Shown here one piece after another: positions 4,093-27,454 of a DNA stretch of 64,000 nucleotides (positions are counted from its first letter, which is position 1; each line of letters starts with the position of its first letter). The stretch is from an uncultured delta proteobacterium. Its GTDB lineage: Bacteria > Bdellovibrionota > FAC87 > UBA2466. Under the pieces are notes generated by a model, which saw nothing but the letters and a program-made list of their open reading frames with translations, was not told where the DNA came from and did no database searches. The stretch spans positions 151,175-215,174 of the forward strand of contig CAVZSV010000007.1 in NCBI GenBank assembly GCA_963778115.1, written 5' to 3'. The position numbers were made by a program, and so were the translations under genes.

Positions 4093-5451
4093 TTAGTTAA
4101 CTCGTGAAGCATCCTGTAATACTTGAAGGCGTCGGGAGAGTTGGGCCGGCGTAATTCCCGGGGTACTGCGCTCAATCTGCTCGACTAGCTCCTTAGACGG
4201 CACTTTCGCCATCTGGAGATTGGTATCGTAGACACCAGTCGTTTGCGGGTGCTGACCGTAATTATTAGCACAGTCGTCGCTGGTGTATTTTTGGATTTCC
4301 CCTAACGAGATAAAGCCATCTTTAACGCCGTCCACGTACCCGTCAGCATAACCGATCAAAGCTTTCCAAAGGGCGTGGCCGAAGGCACTCCCTGCACTGC
4401 CATCGGGTCCATTGGGTTGATCGGGATCGGTGCCGGGTCCCGTGCTCGACTCTTCGTCCTGTTCGCTCGAGGACATGACCATGAGTGTTCGCCCACTGGT
4501 TCCCCAGTTCTGCCAAACGCTCTTGCTATCGTTAAAGGCATTCACCAAACCGCCCGAGTCGCATGCCATAGTGAAGATAATGATCTCTTTGGCGGGATAG
4601 GCGAGTGCATTGTCTCGAATCTGGTCGTAGGTCACGCCAACAAGTAACTCGTCATCATCGCCGTGGCCACTTGAGTATTGGAGGTACATGTCATTCGCCG
4701 TCATCTGGCCACCAATGGTCTGCCACGCACTTTGGATCTGATCGGGCGTAACGCTGTCGCCGATCAGCTCGGTCCCAAGGTAATTCCCTCCGGCGTCCTT
4801 GGTGAAAACATCGTTGGTATGTTGAACATCATATTTGACTTCGTTTTCCATTTCATCGTTGCTGCTAGAACCGTTAGTGGTTCCCCATCCCAAGTAATAT
4901 TTCTTTCCGGTGAAACCGGCGCCGGTAAGAGACCTTTCAGAAATCGTTCCCGAAGCCTTTGCGGAAAGATGCTTTAAGAACTTTCTACCGTTTCTTTCAG
5001 CCGTAATTTGATCGTGAGACTTAGAGTAACCGTAGTAGCTGACTCCCCCGACCTGGGTCATAAACGCAAAAACATAGTTCGTCTGTCCGGGAGCAAATCG
5101 ACTGAAAGGAACGTGTCTCACTGTGGAGAGGCTCGTCCAGGTAAGCCCGTTAGCGGTTACCGGGTTTTCCGATTTCAAGACGGTAGACCCATTCACGAAA
5201 ATCGATCTCATATTCAAATGACTGTCTTTTTTTACATAAAAATTAACGGCGTCTTCCCCTTTGGTGAACTCAAAGAGAAGGGTGGAAGCCTCATTGGCCT
5301 CCTGTAATAAAGTCCAGTCCGCAAGCTTAGCCAATGAAAGGCCTTCGATATTCACGGAACCTTTGGCCTCCATCAAATTCGCCAGGGGAGTGCCAAACAC
5401 CGGGACGCAAGAGAGCAACGCCCCCAACACTATTGCAATGCCGCCACGCAT
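4093..5451 (-). CDS. secreted clan-CD (legumain/caspase-like) cysteine peptidase, putative
   Basis: ORF track; signal peptide MRGGIAIVLGALLSCVPVFG; His block YSSGHGDDDE and Cys block IIIFTMACDSGG about 35 aa apart, as in C13/C11/C14 peptidases. Confidence 0.55.
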   Translation of the reverse strand: MRGGIAIVLGALLSCVPVFGTPLANLMEAKGSVNIEGLSLAKLADWTLLQEANEASTLLFEFTKGEDAVNFYVKKDSHLNMRSIFVNGSTVLKSENPVTANGLTWTSLSTVRHVPFSRFAPGQTNYVFAFMTQVGGVSYYGYSKSHDQITAERNGRKFLKHLSAKASGTISERSLTGAGFTGKKYYLGWGTTNGSSSNDEMENEVKYDVQHTNDVFTKDAGGNYLGTELIGDSVTPDQIQSAWQTIGGQMTANDMYLQYSSGHGDDDELLVGVTYDQIRDNALAYPAKEIIIFTMACDSGGLVNAFNDSKSVWQNWGTSGRTLMVMSSSEQDEESSTGPGTDPDQPNGPDGSAGSAFGHALWKALIGYADGYVDGVKDGFISLGEIQKYTSDDCANNYGQHPQTTGVYDTNLQMAKVPSKELVEQIERSTPGITPAQLSRRLQVLQDASRVN

Positions 5452-22390: not shown

Positions 22391-22671
22391 GGTTCAGCTC
22401 TTGGAGCGACTTTATCGCACCTGGCCAACGGATGCCTAACAATAATTAAATAATTAAGTCGTCTTGAAGAGCACCGCGTTTTCGCTTCGTGTTAACACTC
22501 GGTGCCACTCCCAATTGCCCGAACTGCCTAAAAAAATCAGATGACACGGCATGCGTGCGCTTCGCGTTATTATCGACGATAAAATCGTGATTAACATACT
22601 CTGCCCTATATGTAGTTTGTTGAACACGGGCCCTCACTTAGTACAATGTGCACCTGGGGGGCCACTTTAAA

Positions 22672-23916
22672 ATGAACTCAATTAAATTGAACTGTATTCG
22701 TGTATTCACCGTCGTCGGTCTGACCTTCGCTTCTTTTACAACAGCAGTACCGGTAAAAGTGGCTGAGGCTCCTGGCGATAATCTCGAAATGACGTTGGCG
22801 GCGATCAAAGCTGCCGGCAAAAGCATCTACCTCAATGCCTACGAGTTAGATTCAGATGAAATCACTTCGGCTCTTCTGGATCGCATCAATGCGGGTGTTG
22901 AAGTTCAGATTTTAGAAGAGGGACAACCGGTGGGAGGACTTACCAAAGAAGAAAAATCCACCCAAACCAAATTGGTTGACGCCATCAATACTTCCGGCAA
23001 TGGGCACTTTTATTTGATGACCTCCAAAGCATCCAAAACGGCAAAGAGCACGAAACGCCGCTACCGTTACGATCATGCAAAATATGCCATTATCGATGAG
23101 AAGCAGCTTTTGGTCGGATCCGAAAATTATTCCCCCACGGGAAATCCCGCAGCAGGGAAATTGGGAAATCGTGGTTGGGAAGTCTTCATCAATGATGATT
23201 CGTTAGTGAAGCAATACCAATCTATTTTCATGACCGACTCCGATACAAGTTACGGAGATGTCGAGGAGCTTACCGACAACAAAGCGAGAATAGAGCAAAT
23301 CGGAGTGGCTGCTCTCGGTAATTTCATGAACCACATGCTTCCTCCTTCCACGGGCGGAGACAGTTCCTTGATGGACGCTCTCCCTGGATTTGATGCCACG
23401 GGAGTTGCCCGAGTGACCTCTCCAGACTCGAGCATGCAAGGCCTTACCGATCTACTTAACAATGCCAAGACGACCATCGACATTGAGCTTATGACCTTCG
23501 CCCCTGGTTGGGCGAAAGAGGAGAAGGTGTCTCCCCTTTACACCGCTGTTCTTGCAGCAGCCAAACGAGGAGTCCAGATTCGCGTATTACTTAATGACGA
23601 CACGGTATTTGGAACGAGCGCCGCCAAGAGCAAGAATCTTCAGGTCGTCAACCAGCTAAATGACGAAGCCAAATCCGATAGCCTTCAAGTGGAAGCGCGC
23701 ACCGCCGATGTCAAAGCCATGGGTGTCGACTACATCCACAATAAAGGTGTCTTGGTCGACGGGAACCAAACTCTGATTAGCTCGATCAACTGGGACGAAA
23801 ACTCAGTAGAACACAATCGGGAAGCCGCCGTCGTCATCGACTGCGCCGACGTCAACCAACACTACATGGCTCTGTTCAACAGTGACTGGAACAATAGCTC
23901 GGACAGCAAGAACTAA
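22672..23916 (+). CDS. secreted phospholipase D-family protein with two HKD motifs
   Basis: ORF track 22648..23916 (ATG at 22672 preferred); signal peptide; HAKYAIIDEKQLLVGSEN and HNKGVLVDGNQTLISSIN. Confidence 0.8.
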   Translation: MNSIKLNCIRVFTVVGLTFASFTTAVPVKVAEAPGDNLEMTLAAIKAAGKSIYLNAYELDSDEITSALLDRINAGVEVQILEEGQPVGGLTKEEKSTQTKLVDAINTSGNGHFYLMTSKASKTAKSTKRRYRYDHAKYAIIDEKQLLVGSENYSPTGNPAAGKLGNRGWEVFINDDSLVKQYQSIFMTDSDTSYGDVEELTDNKARIEQIGVAALGNFMNHMLPPSTGGDSSLMDALPGFDATGVARVTSPDSSMQGLTDLLNNAKTTIDIELMTFAPGWAKEEKVSPLYTAVLAAAKRGVQIRVLLNDDTVFGTSAAKSKNLQVVNQLNDEAKSDSLQVEARTADVKAMGVDYIHNKGVLVDGNQTLISSINWDENSVEHNREAAVVIDCADVNQHYMALFNSDWNNSSDSKN

Positions 23917-23986
23917 AGTTACCTGTCACTATTTAGCGGCTAAGAAAATTACGGTTGGCAAGCGCGCCTAGTTAATGCTGAGTAAT

Positions 23987-24832
23987 TTACAGTTCGACGT
24001 CGTTACCGCGGCTGAACTTTCCGTCGAACAGACGGACGGTGCAAGCCGCGGTGACGGGGTCATGCGCGAAGCATAGGATCCAGTCCTCTTCCACGGCCTT
24101 CTGCAAAAGTTTCTTCTTCTCTTGGATAGTAGTCATCGGATAGAGATCAAATCCCATCACGTAGGGAACCGGAATGTGGCTCGCCGTCGGGATGGTATCT
24201 CCGCAGAAGAGAACTGTTTTATTGTCGCCCGTCACGGTGACAAGGTTTTGTCCCGGAGTGTGGCCGTGATTCACTAGTATTTTCACCCCCGGCACGATTT
24301 CGGAATCTCCTTTTAAGCTCTTAATTCTCCCGCTCTGTTGTAGAGGGGCAATCGTGCTATCAATGAAACTTGCGCGATCTTTTTCGCTAGGCGCATGGGC
24401 GTGGCTTAAATTTTCCTCTTGAACGTAATAAGTTGCATTGGGAAAACTTAAAACCACCTCCCGTTGTTCATTATAACGGGTCGCTCCTCCGACATGATCG
24501 AAATGCAGATGCGTTAACACTACATCGGTCACTTGATCACGATGAATTCCTAAGGCTGCCAGGGAAGTGTCGATATCATATTGAGAATGATCGATGGCAT
24601 AGATGTCGATGAGCTTGTCGCTCCATTTGGTCCCCGCCCCACAGTCCACCAAGATGGTCCGCCCCTCCCCGCGAATCAAAAGCGAACGCAAGGCCATCGT
24701 AATACGATTTTTTTCGTCGGCTGGATTCGTTTTCTCCCAAAGGACCTTGGGAACCACCCCAAACATAGCGCCTCCATCGAGGCGAAATCTGCCAGTTTCG
24801 ACCGCATTTACTTGAAATGTCCCTAGCCTCAC
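23987..24832 (-). CDS. MBL-fold metallo-hydrolase
   Basis: ORF track; HLHFDHVGG motif. Confidence 0.85.
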   Translation of the reverse strand: MRLGTFQVNAVETGRFRLDGGAMFGVVPKVLWEKTNPADEKNRITMALRSLLIRGEGRTILVDCGAGTKWSDKLIDIYAIDHSQYDIDTSLAALGIHRDQVTDVVLTHLHFDHVGGATRYNEQREVVLSFPNATYYVQEENLSHAHAPSEKDRASFIDSTIAPLQQSGRIKSLKGDSEIVPGVKILVNHGHTPGQNLVTVTGDNKTVLFCGDTIPTASHIPVPYVMGFDLYPMTTIQEKKKLLQKAVEEDWILCFAHDPVTAACTVRLFDGKFSRGNDVEL

Positions 24833-26241
24833 TCCCCGCCCCCGCCGGCCCCGGGAATCACCATTTTTTTGGGATCTAGGAGTTCATCCAGTTGGGCCTT
24901 GCTTAGATCGGCCACGGAAGAAGCGACTTCTCGGATCGTCTTATTTTCCGCAAATGCCTTTTTCGAGATCTCAGCCGCCTTGTCGTAACCCACGGCGGGT
25001 GCAAGAGCGGTAGCCAGCATGAGGCCTCTTTCGATCGTCTCATCAATCTTTTGGCGATTGGCCTGAATGCCGCGAACGCACTTTTCTTCAAATATGGTGA
25101 CGGCACCCGATAAAATTGAAATCGATTGCAAAAGATTATGAGCAATCATCGGCATCATGACATTGAGCTCAAAACTTCCCGACATGCCGCCGACGGAAAT
25201 GGCAACGTCATTGCCGATGACCTGAGCACAGACTTGCAGCAAAGATTCAGGAATTACCGGATTTACTTTGCCCGGCATAATGCTGCTACCTGGTTGGACC
25301 GGAGGCAAAATAATTTCCGATAGCCCGCAACGGGGTCCGCTAGAAAGCCAACGAACGTCGTTAGCGACTTTGGTAAGGGCCACCGCTGCGGCTTTCAATG
25401 CCCCGCTCAACTCAACGCAAGCGTCTTTAGAGCTTTGTGCCTCGAAATGGTTGTCGGCCTCTTTGAAAGCTAGTTTGAGTTTCTTCGATAAATTTTCCGA
25501 TACCAACTTGCCGAACTGGGCGTCGGTATTGATTCCGGTACCGACCGCCGTTCCTCCCACGGCTAACTCATATAAGGAAGGTAAAGTGCGCTCGATGCGT
25601 TCGCGCGAATATTTAACTTGAGCTTGGTAACCGGAAAACTCCTGCCCTAGCAAAATCGGGGTGGCGTCTTGAAGGTGCGTTCGGCCGGTCTTTACGATGT
25701 CCTTAAATTCATCGACCTTTTTCTGAAAGGTGGCCTCTAATTTTTTCAAAGCCGGTAATAACTTCTCCGTCACGGCTACGGCGGCCGCCACATGAATAGC
25801 GGTGGGAATAATATCGTTGCTCGACTGTCCCATATTCACATGATCGTTAGGATGGATGGGCTTTTTGCTACCTACCGAACCACCCAGGGCCAAGTTAGCG
25901 ACGTTGGCCGCCACTTCGTTGAAGTTCATGTTGGTGCTGGTGCCCGATCCCGTTTGAAAAATATCGAGCACAAAATGGTCGTCGTATTTTCCCTCGGCAA
26001 TGGCGGTGGAGGATTGAATCACACCGGCCGCAAGCTTCGGGTCAAGCTTTCCTAATTTTTGGTTCACTTCGGCGCAAGCGACCTTGATAAGCCCCAGCAC
26101 TCGAATGAAGTCTCGACCAAATCTCAAGCCGCTGACTGGAAAATTATCCACGGCCCTTTGGGTAGTAGCCCCATAGAGATATTTCGCCGGGATTTTCATC
26201 TCCCCCATGGAATCTTTTTCTACGCGATATTCGTCGGCCAT
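24829..26241 (-). CDS. fumC: class II fumarate hydratase
   Basis: ORF track 24829..26289 (ATG at 26241 preceded by GAGGTG preferred); FQTGSGTSTNMNFNEV and GSSIMPGKVNP signatures; 4-nt overlap with the MBL gene. Confidence 0.9.
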   Translation of the reverse strand: MADEYRVEKDSMGEMKIPAKYLYGATTQRAVDNFPVSGLRFGRDFIRVLGLIKVACAEVNQKLGKLDPKLAAGVIQSSTAIAEGKYDDHFVLDIFQTGSGTSTNMNFNEVAANVANLALGGSVGSKKPIHPNDHVNMGQSSNDIIPTAIHVAAAVAVTEKLLPALKKLEATFQKKVDEFKDIVKTGRTHLQDATPILLGQEFSGYQAQVKYSRERIERTLPSLYELAVGGTAVGTGINTDAQFGKLVSENLSKKLKLAFKEADNHFEAQSSKDACVELSGALKAAAVALTKVANDVRWLSSGPRCGLSEIILPPVQPGSSIMPGKVNPVIPESLLQVCAQVIGNDVAISVGGMSGSFELNVMMPMIAHNLLQSISILSGAVTIFEEKCVRGIQANRQKIDETIERGLMLATALAPAVGYDKAAEISKKAFAENKTIREVASSVADLSKAQLDELLDPKKMVIPGAGGGGE

Positions 26242-26311
26242 GCGCACCTCGTAAGGATAAAAATACGGCGCTAACCATACCGCCGCCACCCTACGTTTTC
26301 AAGGCGGGCAT

Positions 26312-26379
26312 CCCTACAAAAAGGTACGGCCTACCTTCTTGTAGGACCACAGAAAGGTAGGCCGTACCTTTTTGTAGGG
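26312..26379. repeat. perfect 26-bp inverted repeat with 16-bp spacer
   Basis: left arm ccctacaaaaaggtacggcctacctt (26312-26337) is the exact reverse complement of the right arm (26354-26379). Confidence 0.9.
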
Positions 26380-26422
26380 GGCCGGTTGAATTTGGAAGGG
26401 GGGCAGCGTATCATCGCGGCCA

Positions 26423-27454
26423 ATGTTCAAAGGCATCGATTTTTATAGCGATACGCTCACTAAGCCATCGGCCGGAATGAGAAAAGCCATGTGCGAAGCT
26501 GAAGTGGGAGACGAACAAAAAGGAGAAGATCCCACCACACGAAAGCTGGAAGAACTCTTAGCGGAAACTCTGGGAATGTCTTCGGCCCTTTTTTTTCCCT
26601 CGGCCACCATGGCCAATCAGATAGCGATTCGTCTATTAACTAATCCAGGCGATGAAATCATTGCTTCTGAGATAGCCCATATTTTTACTTCCGAAGGAGG
26701 AGGCCCGGCGGTTCATTCGGGGGTAATGACACGCTCCATCAGAGGGCAAACCGGCCTATTCTCCGGTGAGGACGTCAAAAAGGCGTTTCGCTCCGACTCA
26801 AGTCCGCACGACTCACGTTCCCGACTGCTCTCGATAGAGAACACGAGCAACATGGGTGGAGGTTTAGCGTGGCCCCTTGCTCTTCTCGATGAAGTCGTAG
26901 CTACCGCCAAATCACTTAAGATCTCCCTTCACTTAGATGGATCCAGACTTTTCAACGCCGCGATCGCTTTAGCCATCCCTCCCAAACGGATCTCGTCACC
27001 TTTTGATACGGCAACCGTCTGTCTTTCCAAGGGGCTCGGCTGTCCGGTGGGGGCGGTATTAGGTTTTGATAAATCGCGCTGGACCCAAGTGCGAAGGCTG
27101 AAACAGCTAATGGGAGGAGCCATGCGTCAGAGCGGAATGCTAGCCGCGGCAGGTCTGTACGCCCTTCAAAATAATGTGGACAGGCTTGTCGAAGATCATG
27201 CCAAAGCCAAACGGCTAGCGGAGGTCTTGAGTGGCATCAAGTCCCTTGAAGTGGAAAAGCATGAAGGTGCCACCAATATGGTTTTTTTCCGCTGGAACTC
27301 GCCCCAGGTACCTGTCGAAAGTTTTTTAGCTAAGTGCGAAGCGTCTGGTGTTCGCTTTTCTCACATAGAGGAAAATCGGGTGCGAGCGGTAACGCATTTA
27401 GATATTCGTCCCGAAGACATCGAAACCACCTATCGGATAATTAAGGAAATTTAA
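26423..27454 (+). CDS. ltaE: low-specificity L-threonine aldolase (PLP-dependent)
   Basis: ORF track; N-terminal DFYSDTLTKPS...MCEAEVGDE and family-typical length. Confidence 0.8.
   Translation: MFKGIDFYSDTLTKPSAGMRKAMCEAEVGDEQKGEDPTTRKLEELLAETLGMSSALFFPSATMANQIAIRLLTNPGDEIIASEIAHIFTSEGGGPAVHSGVMTRSIRGQTGLFSGEDVKKAFRSDSSPHDSRSRLLSIENTSNMGGGLAWPLALLDEVVATAKSLKISLHLDGSRLFNAAIALAIPPKRISSPFDTATVCLSKGLGCPVGAVLGFDKSRWTQVRRLKQLMGGAMRQSGMLAAAGLYALQNNVDRLVEDHAKAKRLAEVLSGIKSLEVEKHEGATNMVFFRWNSPQVPVESFLAKCEASGVRFSHIEENRVRAVTHLDIRPEDIETTYRIIKEI

Follow-up and report, generated by a model that had tools for sequence, protein, structure and literature searches.

A 68-bp palindrome between divergent fumC and ltaE genes that resembles an inverted doublet of a small extragenic hairpin repeat

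Small palindromic extragenic repeats that occur both as singlets and as inverted doublets are a well-known kind of element. Most descriptions of REP-type repeats and their RAYT partners come from Gammaproteobacteria. The SMAG or GTAG-type REPs of Stenotrophomonas, like other small palindromic repeats, are found in intergenic DNA as monomers and head-to-head dimers with a GTAG terminus, the SMAG-type families at hundreds to more than 1,000 copies per genome. By definition, a REPIN or BIME pairs two inverted REPs into a hairpin (PMC3337134). Here we describe a 68-bp palindrome in the window (the whole 64-kb stretch of DNA analysed) that resembles the REP doublets known as enterobacterial BIMEs and Pseudomonas REPINs (Bertels & Rainey 2011; PMC3337134, PMC3116915): it is made of two short, inverted imperfect palindromes that together form a near-perfect long hairpin, it is extragenic, single units occur elsewhere at gene 3′ ends, complementarity is greater across the doublet than within a unit, the stem core is bordered by A/T runs, and the sequence includes a GTAG motif. 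It departs from REP doublets in that one doublet was seen and apparently very few copies exist, where REP doublets number tens to hundreds; in its 6-nt inter-unit spacer and total length of 68 bp, against about 89–110 bp; in having its GTAG paired inside the stem; in that no RAYT was identified in the window or among the neighbours of other copies; and in a unit core kept across family-level taxa, where REPs are usually species-specific. With the SMAG/GTAG-type repeats it shares stem-loops with a GTAG terminus, single or as inverted dimers in intergenic DNA, but it was seen once in 64 kb, unlike those high-copy families.

A sequence-only reading of the window had reported a perfect 26-bp inverted repeat with a 16-nt spacer between divergently transcribed fumC and ltaE genes, and had judged a chance palindrome unlikely. 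Direct reading of the sequence and a repeat finder agree on the repeat, whose arms (CCCTACAAAAAGGTACGGCCTACCTT and its exact reverse complement, 26/26, 16 nt apart; Table 1) lie between the genes as claimed. Pairing runs further inward, giving 31-nt arms at 94% around a 6-nt centre, and the palindrome is by a wide margin the longest inverted repeat of the window. A search for the arm with up to three mismatches returned its two sites alone in the window, and none of 100 shuffles gave a match; the palindrome is far beyond chance, and the clear related units found in other genomes likewise mark it as something other than a chance palindrome. The 136-nt region 26290–26425 folds as RNA at −77.5 kcal/mol (z = −9.3), and the 68-nt element folds as single-stranded DNA at −30.8 and −31.8 kcal/mol for the two strands (z about −12.4).

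An assembly artefact was ruled out by two independent Logan contigs of run ERR11523675 that give the identical sequence and from which the whole element can be rebuilt, the fumC contig ending at 26342 and the ltaE contig starting at 26315. Both contigs (L001, position 1 = window 26315; L042, position 1 = window 26342) end inside the palindrome, their overlap is 28 nt, and there is no exact repeat of at least 31 bases at that place. These ends suggest a drop of coverage at the hairpin or heterogeneity in the population, for example an inverted centre or an alternative left neighbour.

The earlier reading missed an inner symmetry: each arm forms a palindrome by itself, AAGGTA-N5-TACCTT, and the 68 bp comprise two inverted copies of a ~34-nt unit with the core ACARRAAGGTA-N5-TACCTTYYTGT. 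Because the 5-nt loop is kept as a reverse complement between the units, we take the element for an inverted duplication rather than a pair of independent sites. The two units have outer halves that are perfect complements of each other; each unit alone contains one imperfect pair, and complementarity between the arms (26/26) exceeds that within a unit. As DNA, the single-unit hairpins reach −8.7 kcal/mol (unit 1) and −7.3 kcal/mol (unit 2) and the joint 31-bp-arm hairpin about −31 kcal/mol, which gives the long hairpin an advantage of ~15 kcal/mol over the two unit hairpins combined. The units differ at two inner positions, which argues against a very recent exact fold-back copy. Reading outward, each unit presents its hairpin and then TTTTTGT. 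No further unit was found in the window by the arm search with up to three mismatches, by blastn-short, or by covariance model R1 run with filters off at E<1.

Table 1 Features of the fumC/ltaE junction and of related sites; positions without a locus name are those of the window.
Feature	Position	Strand	Description
Left arm	26312..26337		26 nt, perfect; covers hairpin unit 1 from its outer half through the loop into the inner half
Central 16 nt	26338..26353		Five extra pairing positions per side, with one wobble and one mismatch; unpaired AGGACC at 26343–26348
Right arm	26354..26379		Exact reverse complement of the left arm
Hairpin unit 1	26312..26345	−	CCCTACAAAAAGGTA-CGGCC-TACCTTCTTGTAGG; minus-strand loop GGCCG; model score 51.3 bits
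Hairpin unit 2	26346..26379	+	(A)CCACAGAAAGGTA-GGCCG-TACCTTTTTGTAGGG; inverted copy of unit 1; model score 48.5 bits
fumC	24829..26241	−	Class II fumarate hydratase family, 470 aa; GAGGTG Shine-Dalgarno before ATG 26241
Probable fumC promoter	26274..26302	−	−35 TTGAAA (26302–26297), 17-nt spacer, −10 TATGGT (26279–26274)
Probable ltaE-lepB-dnaE promoter	26386..26414	+	TTGAAT, 17-nt spacer, TATCAT; ATG 8 nt past the −10
ltaE	26423..27454	+	GntG/LtaE-family PLP-dependent threonine aldolase, 343 aa
Sites compared for the ltaE promoter	26386–26425; L029 3960–4003; L032 3963–4003; L034 about 5120–5165; L043 about 4119–4160		L043 site on minus strand
omp-like gene in relatives	L029 3190–3924; L032 3259–3963; L034 4366–5085; L043 4203–4925		
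Palindrome in fumC/lepB spacer	L044 about 4955–4970		12 bp, perfect, AAAGGTACCTTT
JACCDH01 two-hairpin module	L015 690–860; L016 960–1035; L018 1–40; L022 3270–3335; L023 1290–1346		
Tandem mini-palindromes	L021 about 2786–2840	−	TAGGTAGGCCTTACCTA, then directly AAGGTAGGCCGTACCTT
PLD-family and MBL-fold genes	22648–24832		Adjoining pair
Stretch without long ORF, and following ORFs	47053–48595		Possibly a small mobile or defence module

The 181-bp spacer between the starts of fumC and ltaE holds the whole palindrome, which is thus extragenic; lepB and then dnaE follow ltaE. The true fumC start is probably ATG 26241, and the deposited start of the 486-aa database protein (P0241) at GTG 26289 probably lies 16 codons too early: it is doubted because ATG 26241 has a GAGGTG sequence before it, most close homologues are 470 aa long, and the longer model would overlap the conserved promoter. 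The FumC protein scores 607.8 bits, below the NCBIfam fumC_II cut-off of 664.75 bits and above an aspartate ammonia-lyase subfamily cut-off, so that by the NCBIfam models it could be a fumarase or an aspartase. Next to fumC on its other side, a PLD-family protein with weak DISARM DrmC-like and NucT-like matches adjoins an MBL-fold hydrolase that is YtnP-lactonase-like, with Pfam Anti-Pycsar_Apyc1 matches in relatives, and the pair is kept beside fumC in L029, L035 and L042. Elsewhere in the window, a 670-bp stretch without an ORF of at least 90 aa and without an Rfam or tRNA match is followed by a 138-aa ORF without a Pfam family and a 151-aa HNH-endonuclease ORF (48140–48595).

A consensus scan put one outward-facing, sigma-70-like promoter on each side of the palindrome (Table 1). 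Over 20 kb, such scanning for promoters and terminators gave counts equal to those in shuffles, and we used it solely alongside conservation across genomes. The fumC −35 block TTTTCAAGG is kept in L029, L035 and L044, and the ltaE promoter block, TTGAAT/TTGAAA-N17-TATCAT/TACTAT-N8-ATG, is kept in L029, L032 and L043 and also in L034, which has lost ltaE itself by deletion but retains the promoter and the first codons, ATGTTT. In five genomes the ATG stands exactly 8 nt past the −10 with no Shine-Dalgarno sequence, from which we infer a leaderless ltaE mRNA whose conserved start would head an operon that includes dnaE; fumC has its GAGGTG Shine-Dalgarno sequence and a short leader. Between its edges and the −35 boxes the palindrome leaves 9 bp on the fumC side and 6 bp on the ltaE side, in a gap of 83 bp between the promoters. 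Since it is upstream of both −35 boxes of promoters that are conserved in relatives, the palindrome very probably sits in an untranscribed gap between two outward-facing promoters and belongs to neither mRNA.

Protein comparisons place the window at a distance from sequenced genomes: its nearest LtaE is 62% identical, the named DnaE matches (Bdellovibrionaceae or 'Deltaproteobacteria') are 63–67% identical, and it probably represents a deep Bdellovibrionota-like lineage with no close sequenced relative. We compared the junction across seven related loci (L029, L032, L033/L035, L034, L043 and L044). L029 and L032 share 72–78% identity in DnaE and 74–79% in FumC with the window, L043 shares 79% in FumC, and the closest MAG, GCA_038325205.1 (L035), shares 85% in DnaE and 83% in FumC. 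In L029, L032 and L043, fumC is followed by a ~240-aa omp-like gene with its own promoter and terminator and then by ltaE; in L034 the omp-like gene is followed by lepB and ltaE is missing; in L044 fumC faces lepB directly; in L035 an MFS transporter gene occupies the junction, and the alignment of this locus with the window ends directly past the fumC −35; and in the window the palindrome is followed by ltaE. Neither the palindrome nor a single unit stands at the orthologous site in any of the seven loci, the closest relative included; the covariance model found no unit in about 46 kb plus a further ~36 kb of related loci, and tblastn found no remnant of the omp-like gene in the window. Junction content differs in every arrangement sampled, and by this sequence comparison the site of the palindrome is a synteny breakpoint at which the element is not conserved in orthologous position.

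The omp-like protein of these relatives is secreted and beta-barrel-like, with no solid Pfam family (one weak OMP_b-brl match) and copies 43–51% identical to one another; four relatives carry the gene between fumC and ltaE or lepB, and the window, L044 and the L035 junction lack it. The small palindrome in the fumC/lepB spacer of L044 resembles the family core minus its centre and overlaps the fumC −10 position (TACCTT on the fumC strand), possibly by coincidence; model R1 left it unscored.

Scanning a genome collection with the consensus ACARRAAGGTA-N5-TACCTTYYTGT, for which our own arithmetic predicts ~0.5 matches at uniform base composition, gave 13 loci, most of them isolated perfect hairpins in unrelated phyla and often followed by a T-run. 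Palindromic terminators inflate match counts in very large databases, and most of the 13, those outside Bdellovibrionota, are probably ordinary palindromic terminators that converged on the pattern. The genome from which the window comes gave no match in this collection, of which it may or may not be part. Two single units, L014 and L002, both from one Pseudobdellovibrionaceae MAG of 60% GC, are 32/34 and 30/32 identical to window unit 1 and have in common with the window units the loop GGCCG and a CCCTAC/GTAG(G) foot, none of which the search pattern demanded; we calculate the chance of such sharing at about 4e-4 for 13 matches. These two units lie 10–17 nt past the stop codons of unrelated housekeeping genes; one setting is 10 nt beyond the stop codon of a nuoN-like gene, the other is the gap between a convergent gene pair. 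In this GC-rich MAG the units have no T-tail.

A metagenome scan with the pattern AAGGTASGCCGTACCTTNTTGT returned 14 loci in about 12 contexts, mostly on contigs of 34–45% GC, among them one with an identical counterpart in a Bacteriovorax MAG. Their core is the perfect palindrome AAAAAGGTACG-N-CGTACCTTTTT, in many copies of the form 11+1+11 (the AAAAAGGTACGSCGTACCTTTTT version). In the AT-rich JACCDH01 metagenome, at least six copies belong to a two-hairpin module in which GTCCGG-N11-13-CCGGAC is followed directly by AAAAAGGTACGSCGTACCTTTTT. One of these copies comes about 60 nt after a tRNA, and two form a tandem pair at a distance of 106 nt; no Rfam family matched this module. Two further copies are on large contigs of one JGI dataset (Ga0065704), and L021 holds two similar mini-palindromes in tandem (Table 1).

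Across these collections most related units are 3–20 nt past stop codons or between convergent genes, their neighbours are unrelated housekeeping genes, and no transposase was found among about 20 neighbours scanned. In 18 non-redundant units, covariation of the outer stem positions that the patterns left unconstrained is 0.145, against 0.095 when shuffled (0/500 as high), and the four closest units have G-T wobbles as their imperfect pairs when the strand with the loop GGCCG is read. Strict-pattern copies number 1–2 per genome, and no inverted doublet other than the window palindrome was found in the matched genomes and contigs. A literature search found no description of the motif or of REPs in Bdellovibrio, and neither this hairpin family nor its occurrence in Bdellovibrionota appears to have been described before. 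The sequence-only reading had held that a palindrome with neither further copies nor conservation would be consistent with chance: none was found in the window or at the orthologous site, but clear relatives exist elsewhere.

With moderate confidence, we read the element as an inverted doublet of a ~34-nt extragenic hairpin repeat of the REP/BIME/REPIN kind that is dispersed in Bdellovibrionota. It looks and probably behaves like a REP doublet, with membership among REPINs unproven, and is most likely structural or selfish DNA and not a gene switch. Two inverted REP-like units that form one long hairpin are present in the window, and dispersed related singlets are present in other genomes only (L002 and L014; JACCDH01 and Ga0065704 contigs). 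The nested symmetry of the element argues for this reading, as do the near-identical L014 and L002 units at unrelated loci, the perfect-palindrome variant in about 12 further contexts with its outer-stem covariation, a complementarity at the level of the doublet such as the REPIN paper describes (PMC3337134), DnaE homologues that put the window near Bdellovibrionota, and flanking promoters conserved in relatives that lack the palindrome, around a junction of variable content.

Set against the REP-type reading are the single element in 64 kb and the lack of any in about 80 kb of related loci; the 1–2 strict copies per genome, far below classical REP and REPIN populations, with no second inverted doublet; a GTAG that is base-paired in the stem, unlike the free 5′ head of classical REPs; and a wider 'family' outside Bdellovibrionota that is probably in part convergent. 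Nor was a RAYT or Y1 transposase found, Y1_Tnp having no match in 20 small window ORFs or in about 20 neighbours of other copies. If the REP-type reading is right, the unit, with the core ACARRAAGGTA-loop-TACCTTYYTGT and a CCCTAC/GTAGGG foot, would spread or regenerate as a single-stranded DNA hairpin, through a RAYT/IS200-like HUH transposase or by template switching, and the doublet may have arrived or arisen when the fumC/ltaE junction rearranged. It would have no dedicated regulatory role, and incidental effects might include cruciform extrusion in the negatively supercoiled zone between the divergent promoters and a block to stray read-through.

Of the two kinds of repeat named together in the earlier proposal of a REP- or MITE-like element, the REP-like kind is favoured, given that the unit recurs at unrelated extragenic sites, and the MITE is not. 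The palindrome is like MITEs such as Correia and NEMIS in being short, non-coding and intergenic, with ~26-nt terminal inverted repeats, a class that is sometimes found beside promoters; it differs from them in being nearly all inverted repeat, in that no cognate IS was found, and in its borders (GGGCAT|...|GGCCGG), which have no common direct repeat and thus no target-site duplication. It is like bidirectional intrinsic terminators in its A-run, GC-containing stem and T-run, and in that most related units closely follow stop codons, but it lies between divergent promoters with nothing to terminate and fails a canonical terminator scan (0 terminator-like sites in 26100–26600, with no upstream gene on either strand); and one stem sequence recurs at many loci, unlike in independently evolved terminators. 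Other identities were rejected as follows: attC, as there are no RYYYAAC/GTTRRRY cores; a protelomerase site, as the centre is non-palindromic and has mismatches; phage or plasmid origin, as blastn gave no match in phage and plasmid collections; and a known RNA family, as Rfam 15, at gathering and E-value thresholds, gave nothing in the window and 16 related loci but tRNAs and sub-threshold miRNA-hairpin matches. In viral contigs the 17-mer core had six matches, at chance level and without shared flanks.

A local origin is possible but doubtful. On this account template switching in replication, or fold-back repair, made an inverted copy of a single pre-existing hairpin, for example the terminator of a lost omp-like gene, as that gene was deleted, leaving a scar that is neither mobile nor functional. 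The element does fill the slot that the omp-like gene has in L029, L032 and L043; L029 has in this place, directly before the ltaE −35, a small terminator hairpin that shares CCTTTTTG with it; it is a single copy in the window and is absent from relatives; and the TGT/ACA micro-inverted repeat at its centre could prime a fold-back. A scar of this kind would leave unexplained the 94%-identical hairpins at unrelated loci in a genome of a different family. The genes beside the L002 and L014 hairpins are unrelated to the omp-like gene, which counts against a local origin and by which a dedicated terminator of that gene was rejected.

Going beyond the REP-type reading, the doublet could be the active, REPIN-like form, recently inserted between the promoters, of an undescribed hairpin-repeat system in Bdellovibrionota with its own protein partner; we consider this unlikely. 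It starts from the core AAAGGTA-loop-TACCTTT, whose retention across families of 34% to 62% genomic GC would imply a conserved protein partner, perhaps a HUH enzyme of the RAYT type, a nucleoid factor or an RNA-binding one, and the doublet could be extruded as a cruciform.

Quite unlikely, in our view, is a regulatory DNA site, in which four 11-bp half-sites of alternating orientation, their unit centres 33 bp apart, would bind a dimeric or tetrameric transcription factor that co-regulates both promoters from about −60 and −93 of each. The symmetric placement close to both −35 boxes, the regular spacing of the half-sites and the perfect 11+1+11 DNA palindrome of the family core in many copies would fit such a site. 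But an operator should be conserved with its promoter, and the promoters are kept in four to five relatives without the palindrome, which is absent in L029, L032, L034, L035, L043 and L044. Related units are mostly after stop codons or between convergent genes and not in promoter regions, no regulator gene is nearby, and the retention of the loop as a reverse complement is expected of an inverted duplication and needless for a binding site.

In the twin-domain model, negative supercoiling is expected to be maximal between divergently transcribing polymerases, and the palindrome lies where this maximum is predicted. A functional cruciform or insulator, whose extrusion under negative supercoiling would buffer or uncouple the promoters or which would block stray transcription in both directions, could draw on this location, on the very stable hairpins of both strands and on the TTTTTGT that follows each hairpin outward; we nevertheless hold it very unlikely. 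No palindrome stands at this position in relatives, there is no canonical terminator and no upstream gene that feeds transcripts in, and any such effects would be incidental and not a selected function. The cruciform or hairpin regulatory element proposed from the sequence is physically possible but lacks comparative support, being absent in every relative sampled.

An RNA element, in which a stem in a 5′ leader or a small RNA would control the stability or translation of fumC or ltaE mRNA, is highly improbable: the RNA hairpin is extremely stable and the promoter scan alone was no better than shuffles, so that transcription start sites are predicted ones, but the conserved −35/−10 blocks put both starts downstream of the palindrome, the promoters are kept without it, ltaE is apparently leaderless and Rfam gave sub-threshold noise only. 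The earlier suggestion of a stable stem in a 5′ leader is not supported.

By itself, the fumC/ltaE palindrome is a single repeat with no demonstrated function. It breaks short-read assemblies, and as a marker of a synteny breakpoint it is useful for comparing poorly sampled genomes such as these. Should the family prove real and have a protein partner, REP/RAYT biology would reach into a phylum of predatory bacteria, and the element would offer a compact, natural example of a long palindrome at the point of strongest negative supercoiling between two divergent promoters.
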